From Thermomicrobiales bacterium (GTDB lineage: Bacteria; Chloroflexota; Chloroflexia; Thermomicrobiales; CFX8): a DNA stretch of 64,000 bases. Position numbers and translations under genes: made by a program. The notes under the pieces are model-generated. The model searched no databases and was not told the origin of the DNA. It saw only the letters and a list, made by a program, of their open reading frames with translations. Where the stretch lies: NCBI GenBank assembly GCA_037045155.1, contig JBAOIG010000005.1, positions 257,006-321,005 on the forward strand, written 5' to 3'. The stretch's first letter is position 1, and the number at the start of each line of letters is the position of its first letter. Of the stretch, positions 102 through 59,883 are shown in pieces.

Positions 102-914
102 ATGGAAAAGATCGCGCCGCATCTGGTCGGGCCGGAAGAGCTGGCAGGGCGTACGCCGCTATTGGGGCAGCCAGCGCCGGAGTTCCAGATGAAGGACGAA
201 GCGGGGAACTACGTCACCCTCCGCAGGCTGGTGCGGCAGCGGCCGATCCTGCTGCATCTGTATCGGGGTGAGTGGTGACCCACTTGACGACTGTACCTGT
301 CGCAGTTGCGACAGCACTACTGGGAACTGCGCGGTCTGGGAATCGAACTGGTGGCAGCGGCGAACGACACGCCGGAGACGAATCGCGACCTACGCGAACG
401 GTATGACCTGCCGTTCATGATTCTGAGCGACGAGAACGCGAACGTCGCCGAGGCGTATGGGTCGCTCCACGAAAATGATTCGACCCGACCGCGGATTTCG
501 CGAGTGTCGATGTTCATCATCCGGCCGGCCGACGAAGGCTCGACCATTGCCTGGGAGTATGTCGGGCCAACCTCGCGGCACCGCGTCGCACCATCCCGAC
601 TGAGTCAGGAGATTCAGACCTACCTGGGCATGCGTCATCAGACGGTGAGCGTGATCGTGCCCTCGGCATGGCAGGTGGAACGGGTGATCGCGGGATTCCA
701 GGATCCTCCGTTCGGACTCTACCGGACGCCTGCCGAGATCAACGAGCCAGGTGTGATGGTCTACCGCGACTACATGCGCGAGCTGGCCATGCAGGCCCAC
801 GGGGAGGTATTCCGACTGCAGAGCAGCGGCTGGACGCTGGCCGCGGTCTCGCCTGAGATGGACGGCGACATCGCGGTCGGGCAACGGTATGTGTTTACGA
901 GGGATGGGGGATGA
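102..914 (+). CDS. Peroxiredoxin-like thioredoxin-fold protein (AhpC/TSA, PRX_like2 type) with two in-frame UGA codons at the CxxC positions. Candidate Sec-Pro-Thr-Sec selenoprotein with an unassigned C-terminal extension of about 110 aa.
   Basis: ORFs 36..278 and 306..914 share one frame and are separated only by TGA CCC ACT TGA plus 6 sense codons. The joined product reads LLHLYRGEW-*-PT-*-RLYLSQLRQHYWELRGLGIELVAAANDTPE..LPFMILSDENANVAEAYG, which matches the FYRGxWCPxC..L..L..LSD family pattern. ATG at 102 follows AAGGGAG. GTG at 36 is an alternative start. Confidence 0.6.
291..323 (+). promoter_or_regulatory. bSECIS-like stem-loop immediately downstream of the two in-frame UGA codons
   Basis: CUGUCGCA(297-304)-GU-UGCGACAG(307-314) is a perfect inverted repeat. 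It can be extended by 291-295/318-322 with one U-U mismatch. The loop centre lies about 28 nt from UGA-1 (276) and about 19 nt from UGA-2 (285). The apical loop contains GU. Confidence 0.45.
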
Positions 915-2626: not shown

Positions 2627-3835
2627 TCAGTCGGGATCCCAGACCTGTACAGCGCCAGCGGCGGCGAGGCCGTCGATCTCGGCGTCGGTGAGCTTACAGC
2701 GCTCGCGGAGGACCTCGCGAGTGTGCTGGCCAAGGACGGGCGGAGCGGTGCGAACCTCGGCGGTCGTGGCACTGAAGGCCATCGGGACGCCGGGCAGCCG
2801 GATCTCGCCGAGGGTGGCGTGCTCGACCTCGACGAGCATCTTCCGGGCGAGGACGTGCGGATCAGCGAAGGTCTCAGCCATCGTATTGATCGGCGCAACC
2901 GGGACGCCGGCCTCGATCAGCAGCTCAACCCACTCGGCGGCCGGCTTGCGCGCCAGCTCCGTTTCGATCAGCGACGTGAGCGCCGGCCGGTTGGCGACAC
3001 GATCTGCGTTGGCGCAGAAGCGCGGGTCGTCGATCAGCTGGGGCCGGCCGAGCGCCTGGCAGAGCGCCGCGAAAAGCCGGTCGTTTCCAGCGGTGATGAT
3101 CAGTGGGTCGTCGGCCGTCTGGAACACCTGCTTGGGCGCGACCAGCGGGTCGACGTTGCCAGTGCGCGGCTGGTTCTCCCCGGTGATGAGGTAGTAGAGG
3201 TTCGCGCCAATCAGCCAGCCGATCATCGTATCGAGCAGATTGACCTCGACGAGCTGTCCCTCGCCAGTGCGCTCACGGTGGCGCAACGCCGCGAGAATCG
3301 TGCTGGTGGCAAGCATGCCGGCCGTGATGTCGCCGATGGCGACGCCAGCGCGCATCCCGTCCCCTTCCGACTCGCCGGTGACGCTCATGAATCCACTCAG
3401 AGCCTCGGCAATCAGGTCGTAACCAGGGCGCAACGCGTAGGGGCCGGAGCGGCCGAACGCAGAGATCGAGCAGTAGACGAGATCGGGACGGACGGCGCGC
3501 AAATCCTCATACCCGAGGCCGAGCCGCTCCATGACACCGACGCGAAAGTTCTCGACAACGACGTCCGCGCCGCGGACGAGGTCGAGCGCGATCTGGCGGC
3601 CCTTCTCGCTCTTCAGATCGAGCGCGATGCCACGCTTATTGCGGTTCACCGAGAGGTACGCGCCGGTCTGGTCGCCCAGCCAGGGCGGCCCCCAGGAGCG
3701 CGTGTCGTCGCCCTTGCCGGGCCGCTCAATCTTGATGACGTCCGCGCCCATGTCGGCCAGCAGCATCGTGCAGTACGGGCCGGCGAGAATCCGCGAGAAG
3801 TCGACGACCGTGATGCCATCCAGCGCGCCTGCCAT
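2627..3835 (-). CDS. Family III CoA-transferase (CaiB/BaiF/Frc-like)
   Basis: 402 aa. The N-terminus LDGITVVDFSRILAGPYCTMLLADMGADVIKIERPGKGDDTRSWGPP is the classic family III signature. GGGGGAG RBS. Confidence 0.88.
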   Translation of the reverse strand: MAGALDGITVVDFSRILAGPYCTMLLADMGADVIKIERPGKGDDTRSWGPPWLGDQTGAYLSVNRNKRGIALDLKSEKGRQIALDLVRGADVVVENFRVGVMERLGLGYEDLRAVRPDLVYCSISAFGRSGPYALRPGYDLIAEALSGFMSVTGESEGDGMRAGVAIGDITAGMLATSTILAALRHRERTGEGQLVEVNLLDTMIGWLIGANLYYLITGENQPRTGNVDPLVAPKQVFQTADDPLIITAGNDRLFAALCQALGRPQLIDDPRFCANADRVANRPALTSLIETELARKPAAEWVELLIEAGVPVAPINTMAETFADPHVLARKMLVEVEHATLGEIRLPGVPMAFSATTAEVRTAPPVLGQHTREVLRERCKLTDAEIDGLAAAGAVQVWDPD

Positions 3836-3853: not shown

Positions 3854-4474
3854 CTACTGACGCAACGCGTCCCGCGAGACAACAGCGCTCTTGTGGACAA
3901 CGAGCGTGCGGGCAGCGCGATCGCCGAGGCGCTGACGGGTGGGAGAGAGCTGGATGATGAGCGCGCCGACGACGCCCGCGAACATGCCATCGACGAGTCG
4001 CAGAAGCGAGCGGACGAGCGCGGGGAGCGGCCGCACCAGCGTGCCATCAAGATGAACGACGCGCAGCCCGACGACCAGCTTGCCGACGGTCGCGCCCCAA
4101 CGCGCCTCCATCAGCCAGGGGTAGAGGATGTAGATGGCGAGCATCACGGCGAGGACGCCGCCGTTTTCGGTGACCTCCTGGACGGTCGGCTCGCGTCCGG
4201 CGGGGAGAAAGTAGGACGCTGGAACCAGCGCGATTATCGTGATGACGATGAGGTCGATGAACCAGGCGATGCCGCGTTGGCCAAGCTGGGCGATGACAAC
4301 GGGCTGGGCGGCCGGCTGCTTCTCAGGGATTGGCGCTGGGGCCGGCTCGTCGGCAAACCCCTCCGGCATCCACTCGCCGCAGTAGCGGCACTTCAGCGCG
4401 ACCGCGTGGATCGGCTTCCCGCAATACGGACACGGCTTCATCGGCGACCTGGCGCTCATGCGCTCCCTGCTCAT
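3854..4474 (-). CDS. RDD-family membrane protein with N-terminal zinc-ribbon
   Basis: CPYCG..CRYCG zinc ribbon, a Pro/Ala linker, then hydrophobic segments and an RDD-type core (WLMEARWGATVGKLVVGLRVV). The start is uncertain (4474, 4459 or 4441). Confidence 0.7.
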   Translation of the reverse strand: MSRERMSARSPMKPCPYCGKPIHAVALKCRYCGEWMPEGFADEPAPAPIPEKQPAAQPVVIAQLGQRGIAWFIDLIVITIIALVPASYFLPAGREPTVQEVTENGGVLAVMLAIYILYPWLMEARWGATVGKLVVGLRVVHLDGTLVRPLPALVRSLLRLVDGMFAGVVGALIIQLSPTRQRLGDRAARTLVVHKSAVVSRDALRQ

Positions 4475-4606
4475 CCCGCTCTCAGCGCCTCACCCACAGT
4501 GGGCGCGGTATGGAGAGATGGTATCAGCGCGGGCGAGTGGCATGCGCGAACTGCCAGGCGGCGGGGCGCAGCCAGTGTCGCCTGGGCTTGGGCGTGCGCA
4601 CGAGCG

Positions 4607-5206
4607 TCAGCGCGTTAGTGAGCCCGACTCTTCCATCGCCGGCATTGATTCTTCGCGCTCCAGCCGAGCGATCGTTGCCACGAGCCAGTCGCGGTCGGCG
4701 TGGCGCATGGCCGTCAGGTGGTCGAGTGCGATGCCAAGATTGAGCTTGTCTCCGTGGGCAGCCACGTCCGGATTCGGCGCCAACAGAGCGTCGAGTCGCG
4801 ACAAGCGCTGGCGTAAGCAGGCGACCGCTTCGTTACGATCGAGGAAATTGATGAGCACAAGACCGATATCTCCGGCGTAGGTCGACTCGTCCGCGGCGGA
4901 CAGGTTTGCTCGAAGCAGATCACGAAAGAGGTCGCGGCCAACCGGCGTGATCGTATAGACCTTCCGCGGTGGGCGATTGCCGGCTTGCTCACTGTGGACC
5001 TCGATGAACCCGGCAGATTCCAAACGGGACAGGAGCGCGTAGGCCGTTGGCTTTTTCATGGTAGCTACATGACAGAGCGTGTTTTCGATGAACTCGTTGA
5101 TTTGATACCCGTGCTGATTCTGCGTCATCAAGACGCCGAGCAGCAGCAGGGCGCGCTCGTCCCAGATCGCCGTGTCGCGGACCATCCTCGGATCACGCTC
5201 GTCCAT
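4607..5206 (-). CDS. PadR-family transcriptional regulator
   Basis: Winged-helix motif LLLLGVLMTQNQHGYQINEFI..KKPTAYALLSRLESAGFIE..RKVYTITPVGRD. The start at 5206 follows AAGGAGG; the ORF-track start at 5230 has no RBS. Confidence 0.85.
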   Translation of the reverse strand: MDERDPRMVRDTAIWDERALLLLGVLMTQNQHGYQINEFIENTLCHVATMKKPTAYALLSRLESAGFIEVHSEQAGNRPPRKVYTITPVGRDLFRDLLRANLSAADESTYAGDIGLVLINFLDRNEAVACLRQRLSRLDALLAPNPDVAAHGDKLNLGIALDHLTAMRHADRDWLVATIARLEREESMPAMEESGSLTR

Positions 5207-5232
5207 CTCTACCTCCTTGATCACCCACATTA

Positions 5233-5295
5233 TAGTCTAGATTGACTAATCATCTCAACACGCCTATACTCAGCACTAATAGTCAAGCGTGACTA
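5233..5295. promoter_or_regulatory. Two copies of palindrome TAGTC-N6-GACTA in the padR / ABC divergent intergenic region (putative PadR operators)
   Basis: TAGTCtagattGACTA at 5233-5248 and TAGTCaagcgtGACTA at 5280-5295. This is the only AT-rich stretch between divergent starts 5206 (-) and 5359 (+). Confidence 0.5.
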
Positions 5296-5358
5296 CACGG
5301 GCCTGCGTATCCATGGTGGAAACGGGGCCGTCGCCTCGGTCGGGAAAGGAATTAGCCT

Positions 5359-6459
5359 GTGTTCCTTGCGCTCCGTGAGATTCGGCACGCCAAGTTGCGG
5401 TTCGCGTTAATCACTGGCGTCATCGTTATGGTATCGAGTCTCGTCTTTATTCTCTCCGGACTTGCCAACGGTCTCAGCGCCGGCAATACCGCCGCGATAG
5501 ATGCGATGCCGATCGATGGGATGGTCATTAGCAACGGGAGTGATTATCTCCTGGATCGCTCTTCCGTCGGGGCCGACAAAGCTCGTGGGATTGCATCCAT
5601 TGCTGGGATTGAGACTGCAGAGCCGCTCGGCGTGTCATCAGCGAGCATCAGGAAGCAAGGCGAGACAAAGCTCCTGGGGGTCTCATTCTTTGGCGTCGTC
5701 CCCGGTGGCGTGCTGGAGCCCCGAATTCAGAAGGGGAATCGCCTCGGCGCGCAAGCGCATGGCGTGGTCATCGACGAGTCGCTCGTCGACGACGGCATCC
5801 GTCTGGGTGACACGTTCACTACCGAGCCAGATGGCGTTGAGCTAACCGTGGTGGGGATCACGACTGGCCAGACCTATCGCCTGGCGCCGGTCGTCTTCAT
5901 GCCACTCGATCTCTGGCAGCAGATCCAGCCAATCCGGCAGGGCACAACGCAGGACGACGTAACGGCCATCGTAGTCCGCGGGTCATCACAAGCGATCGCG
6001 ACTATCCCCGAAACTGTGCCGAATACGATGGTCGGCAGCATCAATCAAATCGCCAACCATATCCCGGGAGAGTCGGAGCAAAACGCCACGTTGCTGCTCA
6101 TCCAGGTCTTCCTGGTGGTTATCGCAGCCGGAATCATCGCCGCGTTCTTCTACATCATCACGTTGCAAAAGATGCCAGAGCTGGGCGTGATGAAGGCGAT
6201 CGGCACCGGCACTGGTTATCTCGCGCGCACGCTTATCACGCAAGTCCTTGCGCTGGCGGTAGTTGGAGTGCTCATCGGGATCTCGATCGCAGACACGCTC
6301 GCGCTCATCATTGGCAACGCGGTCCCGTACAGCATCACCACGCAGCGTATGGCCCTGTTCGGCGGCGTCCTGCTGCTCGTCGCGGTCAGTGGCACGGCAC
6401 TATCGCTCGCGCGGATCGCGCGGGTCGACCCACTGGACGCGATCAACAAGGCTGGGTAA
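5359..6459 (+). CDS. ABC transporter permease, FtsX/MacB-like
   Basis: 366 aa. An N-terminal TM helix is followed by a large extracytoplasmic domain and a C-terminal FtsX-type 3-TM bundle. GTG start after GGAAAGGA. Confidence 0.8.
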   Translation: MFLALREIRHAKLRFALITGVIVMVSSLVFILSGLANGLSAGNTAAIDAMPIDGMVISNGSDYLLDRSSVGADKARGIASIAGIETAEPLGVSSASIRKQGETKLLGVSFFGVVPGGVLEPRIQKGNRLGAQAHGVVIDESLVDDGIRLGDTFTTEPDGVELTVVGITTGQTYRLAPVVFMPLDLWQQIQPIRQGTTQDDVTAIVVRGSSQAIATIPETVPNTMVGSINQIANHIPGESEQNATLLLIQVFLVVIAAGIIAAFFYIITLQKMPELGVMKAIGTGTGYLARTLITQVLALAVVGVLIGISIADTLALIIGNAVPYSITTQRMALFGGVLLLVAVSGTALSLARIARVDPLDAINKAG

Positions 6460-6490
6460 CTGGCTATCAAACGGGCATTGGAGAGCGATC

Positions 6491-7204
6491 ATGACGACGA
6501 ACATCCTTGAGCTGACGAGCATCGACAAGCACTTCGGTGATGGTGACTCCCGCGTTGATGCGCTCCAGGGCATCAATCTGACGGTCGGAATCGGCGAGCT
6601 GGTGGCGCTCATTGGCCCTTCGGGATCGGGCAAGTCGACGCTGTTGTCGATTGCGGGCGCACTCCTGACGCCAACGAACGGGGAGGTTCTCCTCGATGGC
6701 GCCAACATCACGCAACGTTCATCGGCGGAACGAACGCAGCTGCGGCTGGCGAAGTATGGGTTCATCTTCCAGGGGTCGAACCTGATTTCCTACCTGACCG
6801 GGCGGGAGCAGATGCTCTTCATCGCGCACCTCATCGGCTTACCTGGTGCGGAGGCAGAGCGGCGCGCCGACCGCCTGCTGCACGACCTTGGCATGACGGA
6901 TCGTGCTGGCCACTACCCCGAAGAACTCTCGGGCGGGCAGCGCCAACGCATCGCCATCGCGCGGTCGCTGATGAATGATCCGCGCATCATTCTGGCCGAC
7001 GAGCCGACCGCCAGCCTCGACTCAGTTCGCGGGCGACAGGTCGTGGAGATGCTGGCGAAGGAGGTCCACGAGCGTGAGAAGGGCGGCATCCTTGTCACGC
7101 ACGACGAGCGGCTGATCGACCTGTGTGACCGTGTCGTGCGCATCACCGACGGATTGCTCCACGAGGATGAGACGGTGGGCGCGGCGCGGGCCGTGGCTGT
7201 CTGA
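6491..7204 (+). CDS. ABC transporter ATP-binding protein (MacB/LolD-like)
   Basis: Walker A GPSGSGKST, signature LSGGQRQR, Walker B ILADEPT. ATG at 6491; the longer ORF-track N-terminus (from 6263) overlaps the permease gene. Confidence 0.9.
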   Translation: MTTNILELTSIDKHFGDGDSRVDALQGINLTVGIGELVALIGPSGSGKSTLLSIAGALLTPTNGEVLLDGANITQRSSAERTQLRLAKYGFIFQGSNLISYLTGREQMLFIAHLIGLPGAEAERRADRLLHDLGMTDRAGHYPEELSGGQRQRIAIARSLMNDPRIILADEPTASLDSVRGRQVVEMLAKEVHEREKGGILVTHDERLIDLCDRVVRITDGLLHEDETVGAARAVAV

Positions 7205-7373
7205 CCTACCCGCGGCAGCGAGCGATGCTGGGCGCCGTCGCACCTGGCATCGCAGCAACGATCGGACACCCGAAGCACGAGCATGGCTCCATCGGCGACC
7301 TGGCGCTCTTGCGCTCCGTGCTCGTCAGACGGCAGCGCGCCCAGCCGTGCGCGCTGAGGGGATGGTGTCAGGA

Positions 7374-7471
7374 TGGGGAGGGACGGCGCATGGGAGTCGA
7401 ACCCACCTGGGAGGCTCGTCACCCCCCACAGCGGTTTTGAAGACCGAACCCGTCGGTCCGTAAGTGCCCGC
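7374..7471 (-). pseudogene. Decayed tRNA-Sec paralogue or att-type remnant (no acceptor stem)
   Basis: 62 bp (7385-7446) match selC from anticodon stem to T arm with 1 mismatch. The 3' end has a 4-nt insertion (GCGCC-GTCC-CTCCCCA). The 5' third has diverged and cannot pair with the 3' end. Confidence 0.6.
7385..7446. repeat. Direct repeat copy 1 (62 bp, tRNA-Sec core)
   Basis: Identical to 8204-8265 except G7431 versus A8250. The offset is exactly 819 bp, and both copies give the shared peptide MGVEPTWEARHPPQRF in the ORF track. Confidence 0.9.
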
Positions 7472-7614
7472 TATCGTCTGGAATTGCCAGCACAACAGCG
7501 CGTTCAGCACCGCTGCCGTCCACTCTCAACTGCTCTGCTAGCGCAGAGCCGAGGGCTCCCGACCGTGGAAGTCGTGTGGACATTTCAGGCCGACTCCCTC
7601 GTGTGGATTGTCTG

Positions 7615-8082
7615 TCACTCGTAGTACTTCCACTCGCCTTCGAGCCAAAGGCCAACGCCGTCCTTCTGTACAGAGTCAATTATCTTGGGGAGACGATCTA
7701 GCGCCAACTCAAGCACCGCAGGATCGGATGTTGAAATATCGAATCTCGCTCGTCGATGATTATCAAGTTCCACGTATAGCTTCAGAGAAGCTGAAGGCGC
7801 GCCGGTTTCGTTGGCGACTCTATCTGACCACAGCTGATTTCGGGCCCAATCCCATGCGCGCACAACAGCGGGTTTCATTAGGTCGTAGGTTCCATTGCTA
7901 AGCATGCTAAGAGCAAAGTTGACCAGCAGAACCAGTTCTGGTGCACGTCCGCTCGCGCCTCCGACTTGAATCTCTCGATACTGCGCCTTGAACGGAGCCA
8001 GAGCCTCGACCAGCCCATCTGGTGGCATCTCGTACCTGGTGTAGATGATGAGCTGGTCAAGGACTTCGACATTGCGGATCAC
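7615..8082 (-). CDS. Hypothetical protein (155 aa) in the low-GC segment between the two tRNA-Sec copies
   Basis: GTG start preceded by GGGGGAGG at 7 nt. A GCTCTGC-tagc-GCAGAGC hairpin lies downstream. I recognise no motif. GC is about 50% on hand-counted lines. Confidence 0.55.
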   Translation of the reverse strand: MIRNVEVLDQLIIYTRYEMPPDGLVEALAPFKAQYREIQVGGASGRAPELVLLVNFALSMLSNGTYDLMKPAVVRAWDWARNQLWSDRVANETGAPSASLKLYVELDNHRRARFDISTSDPAVLELALDRLPKIIDSVQKDGVGLWLEGEWKYYE

Positions 8083-8196
8083 GTGGTACCTCCCCCTATT
8101 TCACGGGTCACTACCAAGTATCGCTTGCCTGCGTCCTTTCGATCGGGTTCGCTGGTTAGCGACGCGCCATATTCCTATATAAACGCGGAAAACAAG

Positions 8197-8293
8197 TGGC
8201 GAGGGCGCATGGGAGTCGAACCCACCTGGGAGGCTCGTCACCCCCCACAACGGTTTTGAAGACCGCACGAGCCACCGGGCCCGATCCGCCCCC
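8197..8293 (-). tRNA. selC: tRNA-Sec (anticodon UCA)
   Basis: 97 nt: GGGGGCGG-AU-CGGGCC-CGGU-GGCUCG-U-GCGGU-CUUCAAA-ACCGU, a 7-bp extra arm, GUGGG-UUCGACU-CCCAU, GCGCCCUC-G-CCA. It has the 8/5 architecture, a 6-bp D stem with a 4-nt loop, G73 and an encoded CCA. Confidence 0.85.
8204..8265. repeat. Direct repeat copy 2 (62 bp, inside selC)
   Basis: See 7385-7446. Confidence 0.9.
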
Positions 8294-8313: not shown

Positions 8314-9876
8314 TCAGCGGCGGCGGCCGAAGCGGAGGGTGAGGGCTTCGGCGAGATCGTCGGGCGAGGTGACGATGAGGTCGCCGCCGGCCCGGTGCGC
8401 GAGCTCTTCGGCGAAGCGGACGACCTGGAAGTGACGCGAGAGGACGCAGACGACAAGGTCGATGCCATCGCGCCGCAGGCGGTGCGCCTCGGCGTAGGTC
8501 GCAGTGAGCGCCTCTGGGCCGGGCGGCTGGTGGAAGTGGACGCGGCCTTCGAGGTCGCGATGGGCGGTTGGCTCGCCGTCGGTGAGCAAGATCAGGGTGC
8601 GCTGCATGCCGCGGTGGGTGGCGAGGGCGGTGCGGGCGAGGCGCAAGGCGTCCTGGATGTTCGTGCCCATGCCGTAACGGTCCCAGCCGAGGGCGGGAAG
8701 CTCGGAGAGCTGAAGCTGGCGGGCGGTGTCGGAGAAGCCGGCCAGCAGGAGCTCGTCACGCGGGTAGCGCTGCCGGACGAGGCTGGTCAGGCCGAGGGCG
8801 AGCTGTTTGGCGGCGAGGAGATAGCCACGCTCCCCCATCGAGCGGCTGAGGTCGATGGCCAGCATCGTTGCGGCGCGCGAGGATTCTTCGCGCTCGAAGA
8901 CGGTGAAGTCGTCGGCGCGGAGGCGGACGGGCGAGCCGCCGCCACGTCGCACGGCGCTCATGACGGTGGCGCCGAGGTCGAGGGTGAGGGCGTCGCCGAA
9001 TTCGTACGGACGGCTGGCGCCGGTGAGGTCGTGCTGGCCGGCGACGCCACGCGCGGCGCGATCTCCGGAGCGGTGCGCGCTGATCCGTTCGAGCGTGCGG
9101 GCCAGCAGCTCGACGCTGATGAGTCTGATGGCGCGTGCGGAGAGCTGGCGCTTGCCGGGTTTGCCACGCAGATAGCCGGAGTCGGAGAACGTCTGGAGAC
9201 TCACGGCGAGGCGGGTGAATCCATCGGCTGCGCGGTCACCGAGGGCGTGACGGACGAGCTGTTCGTCGATCAGATCGACATCATCGACGCGCCGAACGCT
9301 TCGCACCTGCTTCTCAAGGTCGTCGAGGGCGCTGAGATGGGCAATCTGCGTCAGCAAACCCTGGCTGGCGCCGCCCATCGAGAGGTTGATGTCGTCGGAG
9401 TCGAGGTGCCGGCCGGCGTCGGCGAGACGCTCGCGGAGGGCGGCGTCGAGCGGGAAGCGCTGGTCGGCGTCGAGGCCGGAGATCATCCGGGCGGAGGTGG
9501 CGGCGTTGGCAGTGAGGGCGTCGAGCAGACGGCTGAGGTCGGCGTCGAGCGATTGCGCGCCGCCCTGCTGGAGCTGGTCGACGAGGCGTTGGAGCTCGGG
9601 ATCGGCAGCGATCGCGTCGAGGAGCTCGCGGCGCTGGCGGCGTAGCAGCTCGCGGAGTTCGTCGAGGCCGAGCGCCTCCAGGTCGCCCGACGCGACGCCG
9701 CGGTGGAGCGCCTTGTCGAGCGCCTGGTCGATGCTGCCGGAGAGCAGATCATCGGCGAGGGCGGCGAGAAGGTCGGCGGGCAAGATCGCGGGGACGGACT
9801 GAGTGTCATCCCAGGCACGGTATCGATATCGCGGCGCGGTGGCGCGGTCTGCCTCGGTCACGTTGAGGACCTCCAT
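8314..9876 (-). CDS. von Willebrand factor type A (VWA) domain protein, CoxE-like
   Basis: 520 aa. The C-terminal VWA domain has a MIDAS-type DLSRSM motif and TLILLTDGEPTAH. The N-terminal helical region is unassigned. Confidence 0.75.
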   Translation of the reverse strand: MEVLNVTEADRATAPRYRYRAWDDTQSVPAILPADLLAALADDLLSGSIDQALDKALHRGVASGDLEALGLDELRELLRRQRRELLDAIAADPELQRLVDQLQQGGAQSLDADLSRLLDALTANAATSARMISGLDADQRFPLDAALRERLADAGRHLDSDDINLSMGGASQGLLTQIAHLSALDDLEKQVRSVRRVDDVDLIDEQLVRHALGDRAADGFTRLAVSLQTFSDSGYLRGKPGKRQLSARAIRLISVELLARTLERISAHRSGDRAARGVAGQHDLTGASRPYEFGDALTLDLGATVMSAVRRGGGSPVRLRADDFTVFEREESSRAATMLAIDLSRSMGERGYLLAAKQLALGLTSLVRQRYPRDELLLAGFSDTARQLQLSELPALGWDRYGMGTNIQDALRLARTALATHRGMQRTLILLTDGEPTAHRDLEGRVHFHQPPGPEALTATYAEAHRLRRDGIDLVVCVLSRHFQVVRFAEELAHRAGGDLIVTSPDDLAEALTLRFGRRR

Positions 9877-10047
9877 TTCGATGGCAATTATAGGAACCGG
9901 CCACGGAACAGCGTTGGTATGGTGGGCAAGCCAGTCGGTAGAATGACAGGACGCCTATTTTCCCGGCCCATTCGATTCGGGCCAGCGGGTGCTGGCGGTC
10001 ACGGCCGGTGGGAGCATCACGACACGGTTAACGAGCAGCGTGAAGCA

Positions 10048-10905
10048 GTGGTGAACGATCAGACAGCACCGACCAGCCCCGGACTTCTTCTGCCGGCGCT
10101 GCTGGACGAGCTAGAACGCGTCCAGCTGGATGTCGAGATCGCGCGGCGTAATCGACGGATCGAGCATCTGCGCGAGCTGATCGTCGCAGAGCAGGCGGCC
10201 CAGCAACGGCTGCGCCTGCAGATCGACGAGCGGATCGGGCTGCTGCGGCGAGATATTGATCGGATTGGATCCGAAATCCAACGACTGGAGATTCGGCTGG
10301 AGCGGCTGACGTTCGCCAGCCGGGCGCTCTCCGACCACGAGCTCGATCACGAGGAGCAGGCAGAACGCGCCGAGGAGGCGCAGTTCTGGGCAGAGTGGCG
10401 GCAGCACCGCGACGAGCGCACAGGCACGATGGTGGCTCGCGCCCCCCGACAGAATGCCGATGCGAATCTCCGCCAGCTCTACCGGGCGCTGGCGAGGATG
10501 ATCCATCCCGACCTGGCGCGCGACACGGGGGACCGGGCGCGACGCGAGGCTGTGATGCGGCTGGCGAACGCGGCGAACGAGGCCGGCGATATCGAGCAGT
10601 TGCGCCGGTTGCTGACGATCTGGTCGAAGGCGGACGCGGGGGAGATGACCCGCGACACGCGGACGATGCGGGCGCGACTGACCGAGCGCGAGGTGGAGAT
10701 CGCCGAGTTGGAGGCGGAGCTCGAGGAGCTGGCCGAGAGCACGCTCGGGACGCTCCGCCGACGCCCGCGCGCCGACCTGGCGCGGTTCGTCAAGCGCGAG
10801 GAGGAGCGGCTCCGGCGGGATGTTGCGACGCTTCGCCTACGGCGCCGTCGGCTATTGAGCTCGGTCGAGGACCGGCGTCAGCAGCTGACCAAAGCATCAG
10901 ACTGA
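10048..10905 (+). CDS. J-domain (DnaJ-like) protein with coiled-coil N-terminus
   Basis: LRQLYRALARMIHPDLARD contains the HPD motif. The flanking regions are heptad-like and Arg/Glu-rich. There is no ATG upstream, so the start is GTG at 10048 or 10051 (uncertain). Confidence 0.6.
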   Translation: MVNDQTAPTSPGLLLPALLDELERVQLDVEIARRNRRIEHLRELIVAEQAAQQRLRLQIDERIGLLRRDIDRIGSEIQRLEIRLERLTFASRALSDHELDHEEQAERAEEAQFWAEWRQHRDERTGTMVARAPRQNADANLRQLYRALARMIHPDLARDTGDRARREAVMRLANAANEAGDIEQLRRLLTIWSKADAGEMTRDTRTMRARLTEREVEIAELEAELEELAESTLGTLRRRPRADLARFVKREEERLRRDVATLRLRRRRLLSSVEDRRQQLTKASD

Positions 10906-20707: not shown

Positions 20708-22165
20708 GTGATGGATCAGCGGGACGCGCCATTCATCGAGGCACTGCAACAATATGCCGGGACTGCAGCCGTGCCATTCTCAACACCGGGCCATAAGCGC
20801 GGAGCCGGCGCCCCGGCGACCCTGCGACAACTGCTTCCCGACGCGCTCGCTTGCGACATCCCGCACGGCGGCGGAGTGGACACGACCCACCTGTCGAAAG
20901 GACTGCTGCGCGAGGCGGAGAAGCTGGCGGCGGCGGCGTATGGAAGCGACGAGGCGCGGTTCCTGGTAAACGGGAGCACGACTGGCAACCTCGCGATGCT
21001 GATGGCGGCGGCGCAGGATGGCGAGACCGTGCTGGTCAGCAGAATGCTGCACAAATCGCTGATGGCCGGCCTGATATATAGCGGCGCTCGACCGGTCTTT
21101 CTGACGCCCGAGATCGAGACGGCACGGAATCTGCCGCTGGCTATCACTCCGGGACGTATCGCTGACGCGCTGGCGAGCCACCCCGACGCGAAGGCCGTCG
21201 TGCTCGCGAGTCCGTCATACGTCGGGGTGAGCTGCGACCTGGCTGAGATCGCCCGCGTCTGCCACGAGGCCGGCAAGCCGCTGCTGGTGGACGAAGCCTG
21301 GGGGCCACACTTCCACTTTCACCCGGCGCTGCCCTTGTCGGCGATGCAGGCCGGCGCGGACGCGGGGGTATCGAGTACTCACAAGATGCTGGCAGCTCTC
21401 ACGCAGGGCTCGACGCTGGTCATGCGCCACGGACGGGTCGATGTCGAGCGGATGAGCACGATCGTGGACATGGCGCAAACGACAAGCCCGTCGGCCCTGA
21501 TCTATGCCTCGCTCGACGCGAGCCGACGACAGATGGCGCTGGACGGAGAGTGGCTTCTCGGGCGGACGATCGAGCTGGCTAACGACCTGCGCGATCGGTT
21601 GGGAGCGCTTTCGGGATTAGCGGTTATCGGACCGGAGATCATTGGAGGCCATCCGGGTGTTCAGCTGGACCCGACTCGCGTCGTGGTGGATGTGCATCAA
21701 CTAGGCTGGACCGGCTACGAGGCGGAGGATTATCTCCGCGACGAGCACGGGGTCTATGTCGAGATGAGCGACCTGCTGAGCGTGATGCTGCTGGTTACGA
21801 TCGGAGACAGCGCAGAGTCAATCGGGCGGGCAGCCCGGGGGTTTTCGATGCTGGCAGCGCGCCCGCGCCCGGCAAGGCACTCCACCGCCGCGCGCTCTGT
21901 CGGGGAGCTGCTGTTCGCCGGCGTCGCGGAGCTGACTCCCCGTGAGGCGTTCATGGGGCAAACCCGCGCGGTGGCGATCCCGGAGGCGCACGGGGAGATC
22001 AGCGCCGAGGCAATCACACCGTACCCGCCGGGCATCCCCATTGTCGCGCCAGGAGAACGGATATCCGCAGCGACGATCGACTATCTTCGCGTCGGGATCG
22101 CCGAGGGCATGTACATTTCCGGAATGGCGGATTCGACGTTCGAGACTGTGCGAGTGGTGAAGTGA
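20708..22165 (+). CDS. PLP-dependent Orn/Lys/Arg decarboxylase-family protein
   Basis: 485 aa. N-terminus PFSTPGHKRG and PLP-lysine motif SSTHKMLAALTQGS. Confidence 0.85.
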   Translation: MMDQRDAPFIEALQQYAGTAAVPFSTPGHKRGAGAPATLRQLLPDALACDIPHGGGVDTTHLSKGLLREAEKLAAAAYGSDEARFLVNGSTTGNLAMLMAAAQDGETVLVSRMLHKSLMAGLIYSGARPVFLTPEIETARNLPLAITPGRIADALASHPDAKAVVLASPSYVGVSCDLAEIARVCHEAGKPLLVDEAWGPHFHFHPALPLSAMQAGADAGVSSTHKMLAALTQGSTLVMRHGRVDVERMSTIVDMAQTTSPSALIYASLDASRRQMALDGEWLLGRTIELANDLRDRLGALSGLAVIGPEIIGGHPGVQLDPTRVVVDVHQLGWTGYEAEDYLRDEHGVYVEMSDLLSVMLLVTIGDSAESIGRAARGFSMLAARPRPARHSTAARSVGELLFAGVAELTPREAFMGQTRAVAIPEAHGEISAEAITPYPPGIPIVAPGERISAATIDYLRVGIAEGMYISGMADSTFETVRVVK

Positions 22166-32902: not shown

Positions 32903-33541
32903 ATGGAAGATGTGCTCGACGTCTATGCTCGACCGATCGACCCACTGCGTCCACTAGTCTGCTTTGACGAGAGTGGCAAAGCACTCCGGGGCGATGTCCG
33001 TCCCAGTCAGCCAGCTGGACCCGGTCACGCGCTGCGGGAAGATCCGGCCTATATCCGCCACGGCAGTGCCAACCTCTTTCTCTGGTGTGCGCCCCATCTT
33101 GGACAGCGAGGCATCACCGTCACCGAGCGGCGCACCCGGGTCGACTGGGCCGTCGCCATGCGCCATCTCGTCGATGAGGTCTTCCCGACGGCGGAGCGGA
33201 TCGTGGTGGTGCTCGACAATCTCAACATCCATGCCGACCACTCACTCTATGCGGCGTTCCCGCCCCGGGAGGCAAAGCGCATTCGCGACAAGCTGGAACT
33301 GCATTACACCCCCAAGCATGCTTCGTGGCTGAACATCGCCGAACTGGAGTTTAGTGCGCTGGTGCGCCAATGTCTGGATCAGCGCATCCCCACGCCGACG
33401 GACTTGCAGCAGGCGGTTGATGCCTGGACAACCCGGCGCAACAGCCGCGCCAAACCGGTGCAATGGCACTTCATGGTGGAGCACGCACGCATCAAATTGC
33501 GCCGGCTGTATCCGGTCCCTGAACTGGACACTTCATGCTAG
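32903..33541 (+). CDS. IS630 transposase OrfB (DDE catalytic part; expressed as OrfAB fusion)
   Basis: DESG.., VVVLDNLNIH and ASWLNIAELEF are DD(35)E-type motifs. The TAG stop lies inside the right IR. Confidence 0.85.
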   Translation: MEDVLDVYARPIDPLRPLVCFDESGKALRGDVRPSQPAGPGHALREDPAYIRHGSANLFLWCAPHLGQRGITVTERRTRVDWAVAMRHLVDEVFPTAERIVVVLDNLNIHADHSLYAAFPPREAKRIRDKLELHYTPKHASWLNIAELEFSALVRQCLDQRIPTPTDLQQAVDAWTTRRNSRAKPVQWHFMVEHARIKLRRLYPVPELDTSC

Positions 33542-51347: not shown

Positions 51348-51420
51348 GCCCTTGTAGCTCAGTAGGCAGAGCACATTCTTGGTAAGAATGAGGTCTCGAG
51401 TTCGAATCTCGACAAGGGCT
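51348..51420 (+). tRNA. tRNA-Thr (anticodon GGU)
   Basis: GCCCTTG-TA-GCTC..GAGC-A-CATTC-TTGGTAA-GAATG-AGGTC-TCGAG-TTCGAAT-CTCGA-CAAGGGC-T. All stems are Watson-Crick. CCA is not encoded. Confidence 0.9.
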
Positions 51421-51425
51421 CAGGC

Positions 51426-52039: not shown

Positions 52040-52112
52040 GCCGACGTAGCTCAGCTGGCAGAGCAGCTGTTTCGTAAACAGCAGGTCCGGGGTTCGAATC
52101 CCCGCGTCGGCT
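52040..52112 (+). tRNA. tRNA-Thr (anticodon CGU)
   Basis: GCCGACG-TA-GCTC..GAGC-A-GCTGT-TTCGTAA-ACAGC-AGGTC-CGGGG-TTCGAAT-CCCCG-CGTCGGC-T. Confidence 0.9.
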
Positions 52113-52337
52113 CCCCCGAAACCCGCATACAGACGCTAAAACTACTGTCGGCCGATATGGCAGCCGAAGCCTTTTCGGTCCGCGCGACGATGCCGAGGTT
52201 GCGCACGGCTGACAGGCCGCCTCGCATCGTGACGCGGGCGCTTGCGCCGTGTGTCCTGGCGCGTGTGATACGATCACGAACCCGATGCGACAGTTCAGGG
52301 CGACGTGACTATCCCGCCCCGATCGAAAGGTTCGCCT

Positions 52338-56875: not shown

Positions 56876-57793
56876 ATGAAACGAATTCTGATCCCTCTCG
56901 ATGGTTCGACACTGGCCGAGGCAGCCCTCCCCTTTGGCGCGTCGATTGCTCGAGCGACCGGCGCGACGATTGAGGTCGTCCATATTATCGAAGCGCCCGC
57001 GCTGATCGACCTGCCAACGTCGCAGCTGATCCCGGACCCGACCCGCGTCCACGCGTACCTGCACGACACCGCCGAGCGCGTCATTCCAGGTGTGGCGGTG
57101 GAGAGCTGGGTGCGAGCCGGAGATGCGGTGGACGAGCTGATCAGCCATGCCGCCGAACAGCCTGAGTCCATGATCGTCATGGCGACACGTGGGCGCGGCG
57201 GGCTTGGCCGGTTGGTTCTCGGCAGCGTTGCCGACAAGGTCGTGCGACTCTCGACGACGCCGGTCGGGCTCGTCCGCCCGGTGGAAGGCGAAGCTGTGGG
57301 CGCTGCCGACATCCGCTCGATTGCGGTCGCGCTCGATGGATCGGAGACAGCCGAGCAAGGGTTGGCGATCGCTGTCGATTTTGCGAAGACGGCCGGCGCG
57401 GCACTCCACCTGATCGAGGTGGTCGAACCGGTCTGGGCATCCCCCTACATCGCCGCTAGCCCGGATATGCTCGCGGTAAACGTGAACCAGCTCACCGAGC
57501 TCCAGATGCTTGCTGAGGACGATGCTCGAACGTATCTCGGGGCGACAGCCGAACGACTTCGCGCCGAAACACCTGGCATGTCGGTGGACTGGGCAATGCG
57601 CGTCGGCAGGGCAGCCGAAGAGATCGACCGAGTCGCGGTCGAGGCAAACGCGGATCTGATTGTGGTCACAAGTCACGGGCGGAGCGGGATCCGCAGGTTT
57701 GTGCTCGGAAGCGTCACGACCGGGCTCACCCAGATCGCGTCCAGACCGCTCATCATCGTGCCTGCAACCACCGCGCAAGATGCGGATGAATAG
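56876..57793 (+). CDS. Tandem-domain universal stress protein (UspA family)
   Basis: RILIPLDGS..MATRGRGGLGRLVLGSVADKVV and a second half ending VVTSHGRSGIRRFVLGSVT. Confidence 0.9.
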   Translation: MKRILIPLDGSTLAEAALPFGASIARATGATIEVVHIIEAPALIDLPTSQLIPDPTRVHAYLHDTAERVIPGVAVESWVRAGDAVDELISHAAEQPESMIVMATRGRGGLGRLVLGSVADKVVRLSTTPVGLVRPVEGEAVGAADIRSIAVALDGSETAEQGLAIAVDFAKTAGAALHLIEVVEPVWASPYIAASPDMLAVNVNQLTELQMLAEDDARTYLGATAERLRAETPGMSVDWAMRVGRAAEEIDRVAVEANADLIVVTSHGRSGIRRFVLGSVTTGLTQIASRPLIIVPATTAQDADE

Positions 57794-57810: not shown

Positions 57811-58935
57811 ATGACAGCGACGATGTCGCGGCATGCGCTTGCTTCGGTCGATGCTGGCGATGACATGGTTCTCTCGGCGCAGCTCGACCTCTCTGGAGAT
57901 CGGCAGATCGAACGCTCCTACCGCGTCGCCTTCGACGACATGGCTCGGCGATATCGCGCTGCGCTGGCCCGGGCAGCATGGCCCGCATTCGATCGCGAAG
58001 TCGATCGCGTTCGCGAGTATCTGGCGGCACTGATGCCGGCCGGCGCCGGGCTGGTCATCCACTCGTGCGAACCGTTGGGATTGTGGCATGTCGTCGCGGT
58101 TCCAACGCCCATCCCCAACGAGATTGCGCTCGGCAGGTTCGCTCGCGTTCGTTCGCTCCTGGATTTCGTTGACGAGCACGAGCCGAGCGCGGTCGCGCTC
58201 GTCGACAGCGAGGAGGCGCGCGTCTTCCTTCTCGAACGCGGGCAGGTGGTCGACTCCTGGGATCTCCTCAGCCTTGTCCCTGGCCGGCATAAGCAGGGCG
58301 GCTGGTCGCAGGCGAACTACCAGCGGCATCACGACAACGTCGTTGATGTCCATCTGCGGACGGTGTGCGACCAGCTCGTCGAGCTGGGCCAACGCCAGCC
58401 GTACCGACGACTGATCATCGGAGGGCCGGTCGAGCCGGTCTCCCGATTGCAGGAGCTTCTCCCACGAACGCTGCGGGAGCGTCTGGCCGGCACATTCGAG
58501 GCCGAGATGTTTGCGTCCAATTCGGAGACACTGGATCGCGCATCCGCGGTTCTTAAGGCAGCGGAGCGCGAATCCGAAGAGCGTGTCGTCGCGCAGCTTC
58601 GCGAGGGTGCCCACGACGGAGGGGCAGCCGTGCTCGGCTTCACCCCGACACTCGCAGCGGTTGCGGCGCGGCAGGCGCGGACTCTCGTTGTCGCCAGCGC
58701 CACCAGTCAGCAGGGGGCGTCCTGTCCATCGTGCGGGGGACTATTCGTCGGGGCGCTGTCCATCTGCCCGGCGTGTGGGAATGTGGTCGAGACGGTCGGC
58801 GATGTCGTCGACGAGGCAATGCGCCGCACGATCGTGTCCGGTGGCGATGTTGAGGTCACTCACGGAGTGGCAGCCGCCGAGCTGCTGGCCATCGGGGCTG
58901 GAATCGGCGCGCTGTTGCGCTATGCGGCCGGCTGA
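57811..58935 (+). CDS. eRF1-fold protein of the bacterial Vms1/ANKZF1-like (baeRF, Rv2629-like) family with an inserted Zn-ribbon
   Basis: 374 aa. The loop GRHKQGGWSQANYQRHHDN resembles a GGQ/GxxQ loop. The C-terminus GAGIGALLRY is typical of the family as I recall it. CPSCG..CPACG zinc ribbon. Confidence 0.6.
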   Translation: MTATMSRHALASVDAGDDMVLSAQLDLSGDRQIERSYRVAFDDMARRYRAALARAAWPAFDREVDRVREYLAALMPAGAGLVIHSCEPLGLWHVVAVPTPIPNEIALGRFARVRSLLDFVDEHEPSAVALVDSEEARVFLLERGQVVDSWDLLSLVPGRHKQGGWSQANYQRHHDNVVDVHLRTVCDQLVELGQRQPYRRLIIGGPVEPVSRLQELLPRTLRERLAGTFEAEMFASNSETLDRASAVLKAAERESEERVVAQLREGAHDGGAAVLGFTPTLAAVAARQARTLVVASATSQQGASCPSCGGLFVGALSICPACGNVVETVGDVVDEAMRRTIVSGGDVEVTHGVAAAELLAIGAGIGALLRYAAG

Positions 58936-58962: not shown

Positions 58963-59883
58963 ATGCGAACGGTCGTCGTTCCTCTCACCGATCCCTCGCA
59001 GGATCCGGATCGAATTGCTGAATGTGCGTTGCCATTCGCCCGCGAGCTGGCGGCCCGCAATCACGTTCGTGTCGTCCTCGTCAGCGTCATCGAGCTGCCG
59101 GCCGAAATCGGCCCGCTCTCCGGCTCGCTCGGGGTTGTGTTCTCAAAGGGCCTGGAGAAGTGGACCACTGACACTCGGGAGTATCTGGACGCTATCGCCC
59201 GCACGTTCGACACGCCGGACGTGCGAACAGTCGTCCTCCATGGCGAGGTTGGGCCGCAGCTTCTCATGCTACTCGACGAGGTTCGCGACCCCGTGGTCGT
59301 CATGGGGTCGCATTGCCGGCGCGGACCGCGCCGCGCCCTCGTCGGGAGTGTTACGTTCCATCTGATCCACGCAGCCCGCTGTCCGTTCTTGATCGTGCCG
59401 CCGGAGTTTCGCCGCCTGCATGACCCAGCGCCAATCGGGATGCACCGTGTGCTCGTGCCACTCGATGGCGCTGGCTCCGGCGACGAGACACTGAGCGTGT
59501 TGCACGATGTCCTCGGGGATGGGTTGCGGGTGCAGCTTCTCCGAGTTCTGGAGTCAAGCGACAGTGCCTGGTACTACACCGAGATAGAACGCGAAACGCT
59601 CCGAAAGAAGGCGGAAGCCACGCTCTCTGGCATCGCCCAGCGGTTACGCGAGGCAGGCAACGACGCCAGCACCGCCATCGTAGAGGGCAAGGCCGATGAA
59701 GAGATCGTCCGCGTCGCGGATGACTTCGGCGCGGAGTTGCTGGCGATGCCCACCCACGGCAGAGCCGGTCTGAGTCGCCTCATATTCGGGTCGGTCGCCG
59801 AGCGTCTGGCCAACATGGGGCACCGACCACTGCTGCTGATTCCCGCAGCCTACTCCAGCAACTCCAACGACGAGGCTGACTGA
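58963..59883 (+). CDS. Tandem-domain universal stress protein (UspA family)
   Basis: VVVPLTD..VVMGSHCRRGPRRALVGSVT and VLVPLDGA..MPTHGRAGLSRLIFGSVA. Confidence 0.9.
   Translation: MRTVVVPLTDPSQDPDRIAECALPFARELAARNHVRVVLVSVIELPAEIGPLSGSLGVVFSKGLEKWTTDTREYLDAIARTFDTPDVRTVVLHGEVGPQLLMLLDEVRDPVVVMGSHCRRGPRRALVGSVTFHLIHAARCPFLIVPPEFRRLHDPAPIGMHRVLVPLDGAGSGDETLSVLHDVLGDGLRVQLLRVLESSDSAWYYTEIERETLRKKAEATLSGIAQRLREAGNDASTAIVEGKADEEIVRVADDFGAELLAMPTHGRAGLSRLIFGSVAERLANMGHRPLLLIPAAYSSNSNDEAD

Follow-up and report, generated by a model that had tools for sequence, protein, structure and literature searches.

A canonical selenocysteine tRNA gene of a Thermomicrobiales bacterium, its SelL-like neighbour with two in-frame UGA codons, and a putative remnant of integration at selC

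The DNA here analysed (the window, a stretch of 64 kb) comes from a Thermomicrobiales bacterium of the Chloroflexota, and its annotated proteins run from MEI2618206.1 to MEI2618254.1, one of the locus tags being V9F06_11420. It carries a selC gene, a gene with two in-frame UGA codons and, lying between both, a low-GC islet bordered by an incomplete second copy of the tRNA. The features of interest are the following:

102-914, plus strand: gene for a 270-aa protein, SelL-like and of thioredoxin fold (AhpC/TSA), likely client of the tRNA-Sec; Pfam AhpC-TSA/Redoxin match after the UGAs
276-278 and 285-287, plus strand: two in-frame TGA codons at the cysteine positions of a CxxC motif, predicted to yield UxxU (DNA tgg tga ccc act tga cga)
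297-314, plus strand: SECIS-like hairpin CUGUCGC-AGUU-GCGACAG, from the comparison of five sequences
7382-7449, minus strand: partial, non-functional second copy of the tRNA-Sec gene, matching 8201-8268 in 65 of its 68 nt, proposed att-type direct repeat
7450-8196, no strand assigned: low-GC islet of 747 bp (55.3% GC versus ~70% in both flanks), proposed leftover of a selC-integrated element
7615-8082, minus strand: the one ORF that the islet contains (155 aa), a near-orphan listed as hypothetical protein MEI2618212.1
8197-8293, minus strand: tRNA-Sec (selC) gene, 97 nt, 8/5 fold, G73, encoded CCA (ARAGORN, Rfam, covariation and population invariance)
8257-8259, minus strand: anticodon UCA of that tRNA, reading UGA, tRNA positions 35-37 (ARAGORN, which places the anticodon at position 35, and direct reading)

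An earlier note on this DNA had described a tRNA-Sec gene of 97 nt on the minus strand at 8197-8293 and had proposed running a tRNA predictor on it. ARAGORN calls a tRNA-SeC with anticodon tca at exactly these coordinates, reporting one such gene, and the Rfam family RF01852 (tRNA-Sec; gathering score of 47 bits) agrees, matching 8201-8293 along model positions 1-91 of 91 with 75.2 bits and E = 1.3e-13. Read on the minus strand, the 5' part of the gene is GGGGGCGG AU CGGGCC CGGU GGCUCG U GCGGU CUUCAAA ACCGU U G, and its 3' part is UGGGGGG UGACGAG CCUCCCA G GUGGG UUCGACU CCCAU GCGCCCUC G CCA. The acceptor GGGGGCGG/GCGCCCUC comprises 7 standard pairs, with G2-U71 as wobble, plus a G opposite G at layer 8, and the two-base linker AU follows its 5' strand. 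The D stem (6 bp, CGGGCC/GGCUCG) closes the 4-nt loop CGGU, the anticodon stem GCGGU/ACCGU encloses the loop CUUCAAA, and the extra arm consists of 7 bp (UGGGGGG/CCUCCCA), while the T arm GUGGG-UUCGACU-CCCAU, with its 5-bp stem, leads to the G73 discriminator and the encoded CCA. All structural details given in the earlier note, from acceptor, D stem and loop to extra arm, T arm, G73 and CCA, are therefore present on the minus strand, and the bacterial 8/5 fold that it assigned is backed by two predictors and by covariation in relatives. The sequence-level marks of a bacterial tRNA-Sec are found without exception, namely UCA, the RF01852 score, the 13-layer domain in 8/5 arrangement, the D stem, the extra arm and G73. 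Minimum-energy folding of the single sequence failed to give a cloverleaf, and shuffled sequences fold equally well (z = -0.88); this is no argument against the gene, since minimum-energy folds commonly miss the cloverleaf of GC-rich tRNAs and the GC content here is 70%. A scan for promoter and terminator consensus found none adjoining the tRNA gene.

The fold was further evaluated across homologues, retrieved with a pattern built from the anticodon and T arms and taking one genome per species. The resulting 120 loci belong chiefly to Chloroflexota and Acidobacteriota, and ARAGORN finds a tRNA-Sec in 119 of them. Upon aligning 120 tRNA-Sec genes, including that of the window, with the fold of the earlier note imposed (114 distinct sequences), 91.0% of the cells pair versus 71.4% in shuffles, with 0 of 500 shuffles reaching the observed value, and the covariation score amounts to 0.555, where shuffles give 0.186 and sliding the partners by 1-3 columns gives no more than 0.155. 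Changes on both sides occur in 24 of the 32 pairs. In the relatives, the D stem is paired in 97.7% (both-side changes in 5 of 6 pairs) and the extra arm in 83.5% (both-side changes in all 7 pairs). The G opposite G at the eighth acceptor position, also pointed out before, is confirmed and proves to be a common feature of the lineage: layer 8 appears paired in 67 of the 114 distinct sequences (GC 40, AU 18, CG 6, UA 2, GU 1) and unpaired in the remaining 47. Since a G:G at this layer is also present in tRNAs that directly adjoin selA-selB (loci L022, L021, L079 and L110), it is a lineage trait and no mark of decay. Such an acceptor mismatch being widespread in Chloroflexota, it gives no ground for rejecting a tRNA-Sec.

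Layer 8 also bears on whether the gene might encode a tRNA-Sec-like molecule of other identity, that is, an allo-tRNA or a selC-derived UGA suppressor inserting Ser or Cys. Such an identity could be argued from the G opposite G, which leaves only 7 standard acceptor pairs, and from SelA and SelB not being seen in the 64-kb window or near its edges. On the contrary, the RF01852 match is full-length and far above threshold, G73, the long extra arm, the 5-bp T stem and the D stem of 6 bp around a 4-nt loop are all in place, and layer 8 behaves as a covarying pair in most relatives while staying unpaired in others, tRNAs beside selA-selB included, which makes another identity scarcely credible. 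The gene at 8197-8293 (minus strand) is a genuine, ordinary and canonical bacterial tRNA-Sec, a further member of a well-known family.

The same population is represented in several wastewater metagenome assemblies at 96-99% DNA identity. Among the 8 population contigs that span the locus, none of the 97 tRNA positions varies, as compared with 4 of 747 in the islet and 16 of 52 in the flank at 7330-7381. More distant relatives behave alike. In L088 the tRNA is 100% identical, without any change, within neighbouring DNA of only ~75% identity; in L145, whose DNA runs collinear with that of the window between the M28 peptidase and VWA genes, at ~80-83% identity in the flanks, the tRNA keeps 99% identity, its sole change being at the unpaired base 27; and in L147 (97% identity in the tRNA) base 27 is changed together with a compensatory replacement of G30-C42 by A30-U42 in the anticodon stem. 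The tRNA-Sec is under purifying selection. Considering that it is (i) invariant in its population, (ii) near-unchanged amid diverged flanks, and (iii) accompanied by an evident client gene, it also looks functional.

The client had been announced in the earlier note as a UGA-containing gene of the same neighbourhood, and it is indeed found 8 kb away, at 102-914 on the plus strand, with two conserved in-frame UGAs. Its translation reads YRGEW-U-PT-U-RLYLSQL, both cysteines of the expected WCPxC being replaced by TGA. A homologue search with the Cys-substituted protein produced 84 matches of 31-98% identity, about 80 of which are proteins of ~200-220 aa that start only after the motif. As these cover just the part beyond the motif, gene callers evidently split all of them at the stops; a full-length Cys form of the protein is absent from the 84 matches. 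In all four homologues inspected as DNA (L135, L133, L143 and L144; 46-69% identity) the motif W-TGA-P-(S/T)-TGA-R is kept, and the protein is conserved on either side of both TGAs.

The hairpin at 297-314 starts 18 nt past the first UGA and 9 nt past the second one. At the fourth stem pair, the window and L135 have U-A, L133 has U.G, L143 has A-U and L144 has G.U; pairing is thus kept in all of them, a pattern that would be expected of a bacterial SECIS and for which we term the element SECIS-like. The Rfam search of the UGA gene returned no SECIS family even at permissive thresholds, and folding 273-345 for minimum energy gave no significant result. Scanning the 64-kb window for further genes with in-frame TGA gave antisense-frame artefacts only. 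Because the protein is conserved around both TGAs, no full-length Cys form is found and the hairpin changes are compensatory, the comparison of homologues shows that UGA would be read through in gene 102-914, and it is very likely that the tRNA-Sec serves this nearby gene with its two Sec codons.

Regarding the kind of protein encoded, UxxU motifs have already been described in SelL and, within the GOS data, in Prx-like 2 sequences (PMC2398784). The protein of 102-914 scores 35.1 bits against the NCBIfam model NF040769 'SelL-related redox protein', whose cut-off is 120, so that it is not a scored member of that family. From its sequence it resembles SelL and would represent a known kind of selenoprotein that is seldom seen outside aquatic samples. 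In practical terms, the tRNA-Sec justifies the Sec reading of both TGAs, and 102-914 should be annotated as one 270-aa selenoprotein and not as the two fragments into which all gene callers in the databases divide it.

The remaining Sec machinery was then sought around the locus. Pfam scans of ~60 ORFs reveal neither selA nor selB nor selD in the 64-kb window, tblastn of SelA and SelB from locus L104 against the window gives no match, and sel genes are equally absent from ~10 kb past its right edge and from ~0.8 kb past the left one. A search seeded with a Chloroflexi SelA yielded ~8000 matches, and among the 120 listed, all close to the query, none is assignable to Thermomicrobiales. Compact selC-selA-selB clusters do exist in Chloroflexota, as in L104 (2518-6587; Chloroflexi bacterium Hainich-H41-bin260), where SelA matches PF03841 at 8.4e-114 and SelB shows GTP_EFTU and SelB-wing_3 domains, and likewise in L056, L079 and L093. 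Nonetheless, selC adjoins selA-selB in only 16-22 of the 120 loci, so its location apart from them is not unusual.

These absences raise the question of whether the tRNA could be a relic, in a lineage that is losing or lacks Sec decoding and in which both tRNA and UGA gene are decaying. That selA, selB and selD are missing from 64 kb, while other Chloroflexota keep the three genes selC-selA-selB together, would fit such a reading, as would the insertion that has disturbed the selC locus. On the contrary, decay is hardly compatible with a tRNA that is invariant in the population next to a highly variable flank (7330-7381), nor with changes in relatives that are confined to an unpaired base or come as a compensatory pair, when the partial copy, free of constraint, has gained 3 mismatches in 68 nt. 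In addition, homologues of 46-98% identity preserve both UGAs together with the reading frame and the hairpin, and selC stands apart from selA/selB in most of the 120 loci; a relic is thus very improbable. In 102-914, the Sec trait manifests itself in in-frame UGAs at conserved Cys/Sec positions followed by a SECIS-like hairpin with compensatory changes. Decoding of UGA as Sec by the organism has strong, although indirect, support, since the tRNA is under purifying selection and its neighbour keeps two UGAs and a SECIS-like hairpin.

By analogy with the established pathway, SerRS would charge the tRNA-Sec with serine, recognising its long extra arm and G73, SelA would turn this serine into selenocysteine on the tRNA, and SelB would bring the loaded molecule to UGA codons that have a SECIS hairpin downstream. 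The most visible client would be the SelL-like redox protein encoded 8 kb away, in which a single downstream hairpin would direct the insertion of two Sec residues (UxxU).

Some other genes of the window touch on translation or on mobile DNA. PF01276 (2e-67) identifies the product of 20708-22165 (plus strand) as an Orn/Lys/Arg decarboxylase, which in second place also matches SepSecS weakly (PF05889, 1.1e-5); as a candidate Sec synthase or SelA it was rejected, the SepSecS match reflecting the shared PLP fold. With a Usp gene on either side (56876-57793 and 58963-59883), a release-factor-like gene of the baeRF family 10 / acVLRF1 type (PF18854, 1.6e-27) lies at 57811-58935 (plus strand); its product is a factor of the translation-termination or rescue kind. 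Two tRNA-Thr genes, with anticodons GGU (51348-51421, plus strand) and CGU (52040-52114, plus strand), have strong Rfam tRNA scores. A DDE_3 (IS630-type) transposase ORF occupies 32903-33541 on the plus strand (PF13358, 4.9e-25), in a region of lower coding density at 31.9-34 kb.

The partial copy of the tRNA at 7382-7449 is a new observation, absent from the earlier note. It lies on the same strand as the tRNA-Sec, 819 nt downstream of it, and spans tRNA nucleotides ~26-93, that is, the anticodon arm, extra arm, T arm and 3' acceptor strand. In the window haplotype the copy stops before G73-CCA, while in the commoner haplotype of the population the repeat is 70 nt long at 97% and extends through G73 and C74. 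RF01852 scores it at 38.7 bits, below the 47-bit threshold, its acceptor and D arms being broken. The ORF of the islet enclosed by both copies has no Pfam, NCBIfam or PHROGs match, and a search of 1.84 billion representative proteins brings up no more than 2 remote homologues, at 32-33% identity; its tblastn against viral and genome loci gave nothing, and the phage collection a single trivial match. Pfam, NCBIfam and PHROGs likewise detect no integrase or other mobility gene in 7450-8196 or nearby.

Synteny between the window and L145, at 83% DNA identity, ends exactly at the last base of the tRNA, beyond which L145 carries a different low-GC stretch. This stretch, right after selC (8672-10300 of L145; GCA_029980365.1, JARXNO010001188.1), has a GC content of 0.49-0.54 versus 0.73, contains a 423-aa ORF without Pfam match and shows no tRNA repeat within 5 kb. 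An empty attB was found neither among the 120 tRNA-Sec loci nor among the VWA homologues. At the other end of the islet, the two haplotypes of the population differ at 16 of the 52 positions of 7330-7381, the surrounding 10 kb being ~99% identical; divergence thus peaks sharply and locally in this segment, right at the proposed att boundary. Just past the partial copy, the 67 nt at 7260-7326 are 81% identical to 4409-4475, the 5' end of an RDD/zinc-ribbon gene (3854-4474, minus strand). These two segments bracket a PadR plus FtsX/ABC-ATPase module (4607-7204) of ~0.60-0.61 GC versus 0.66-0.68 outside, which hints at another event of insertion or rearrangement on the downstream side of selC.

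Viral contigs were scanned with the same tRNA-Sec pattern as the genomes. In the provirus IMGVR_UViG_3300020567_000320 (L141), a 90% identical tRNA-Sec is directly followed by a 400-aa tyrosine integrase (9461-10663; PF00589, E 1.7e-22), this being the only place where an integrase was seen at the equivalent position. The same contig also holds a 3' partial copy of the tRNA, with the same start point in the anticodon stem as the copy of the window. Another viral contig, L136, has only a 3' fragment of tRNA-Sec, and partial copies occur as well in L106, L086, L072 and L078. In the first of these, an Actinomycetes MAG (CAVPLG010000005.1; positions 383-420, 3318-3381 and 5887-5978), a tRNA-Sec is followed by two successive 3' partial copies, of 64 nt at 100% and 38 nt at 92%; selC would thus seem to carry islets in tandem in a second phylum as well. 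Islands and prophages linked to selC are known from Enterobacteria (PMC6174562, PMC2704930), and we infer that selC is a hot spot of integration in this Chloroflexota lineage too.

A local duplication or rearrangement, as opposed to site-specific integration, might also have produced the partial copy at 7382-7449. No mobility gene lies between the repeats, and the second duplicated fragment nearby (7260-7326 versus 4409-4475) hints at a messier history of rearrangements. Such an origin would nonetheless leave unaccounted that the DNA between the repeats has 55% GC versus 70% outside and encodes a near-orphan, that the same segment, from anticodon arm to 3' end, is duplicated around the integrase-bearing provirus at its related tRNA-Sec, and that synteny with L145 goes up to the 3' end of the tRNA and no further; hence, we find it unlikely. 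Under site-specific integration, selC would have been the attachment site of an integrase-type mobile element, of which only 747 bp of low-GC DNA, with a single orphan ORF and devoid of integrase, would be left between the repeat copies. As the integrase is missing, the islet looks like the trace of an integration into selC and can be a remnant at best.

Altogether, it is highly probable that 8197-8293 represents the chromosomal selC of a Thermomicrobiales bacterium (Chloroflexota) known from a MAG and wastewater metagenomes, encoding a canonical tRNA-Sec with a SelL-like UxxU gene as client, and that it has served in the past as attachment site of a mobile element. By itself the tRNA-Sec is a matter of routine annotation, found by standard tRNA finders; its value is contextual, the UxxU gene being the more interesting of the two. 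A broader proposal can be put forward only tentatively, and we deem it rather doubtful as a whole: that the Sec apparatus of Thermomicrobiales and Nitrolancea-type bacteria may be retained in the main for an obligate di-Sec (UxxU) redox protein, lineage-wide, without a Cys form, with an uncharacterised C-terminal domain and with a single SECIS for UGAs three codons apart, and that phage integrases, bringing their own copy of the 3' two-thirds of the gene, may repeatedly rebuild a working selC.

In comparison with known systems, the tRNA of the window shares with bacterial tRNA-Sec (RF01852) the UCA anticodon, the 13 layers arranged as 8+5, the 6-bp D stem with its 4-nt loop, the long extra arm, G73 and CCA. 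The tRNA-Sec of E. coli and Aquifex aeolicus display the 8/5 acceptor/T arrangement. Unlike them, the window gene has G opposite G and no Watson-Crick pair at acceptor layer 8, a mismatch common to many Chloroflexota tRNA-Sec, and its anticodon stem is made of 5 pairs plus a U:U. Its selC also differs from that of L104 in not being clustered with selA-selB.

LEE, PAI-I and SHI-2 are selC-associated islands of Enterobacteria. As in these, compositionally deviant DNA is located directly 3' of selC in the window, with a direct repeat of the 3' part of the tRNA as its border. On the contrary, the insert is here of only 747 bp, lacks an integrase and resides in a Chloroflexota host, its intact, integrase-bearing counterpart appearing only in the provirus contig IMGVR_UViG_3300020567_000320.

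Finally, the protein of 102-914 would coincide with SelL and the UxxU type of Prx-like 2 in its AhpC/TSA-type thioredoxin fold, in the two predicted Sec residues in place of CxxC, and in the single downstream hairpin placed for both UGAs. It departs from them in an extra C-terminal region of ~110 aa without family match and, relative to the marine SelL / Prx-like 2 proteins, in its source, since this type comes from Thermomicrobiales and Nitrolancea-type bacteria of wastewater and soil.
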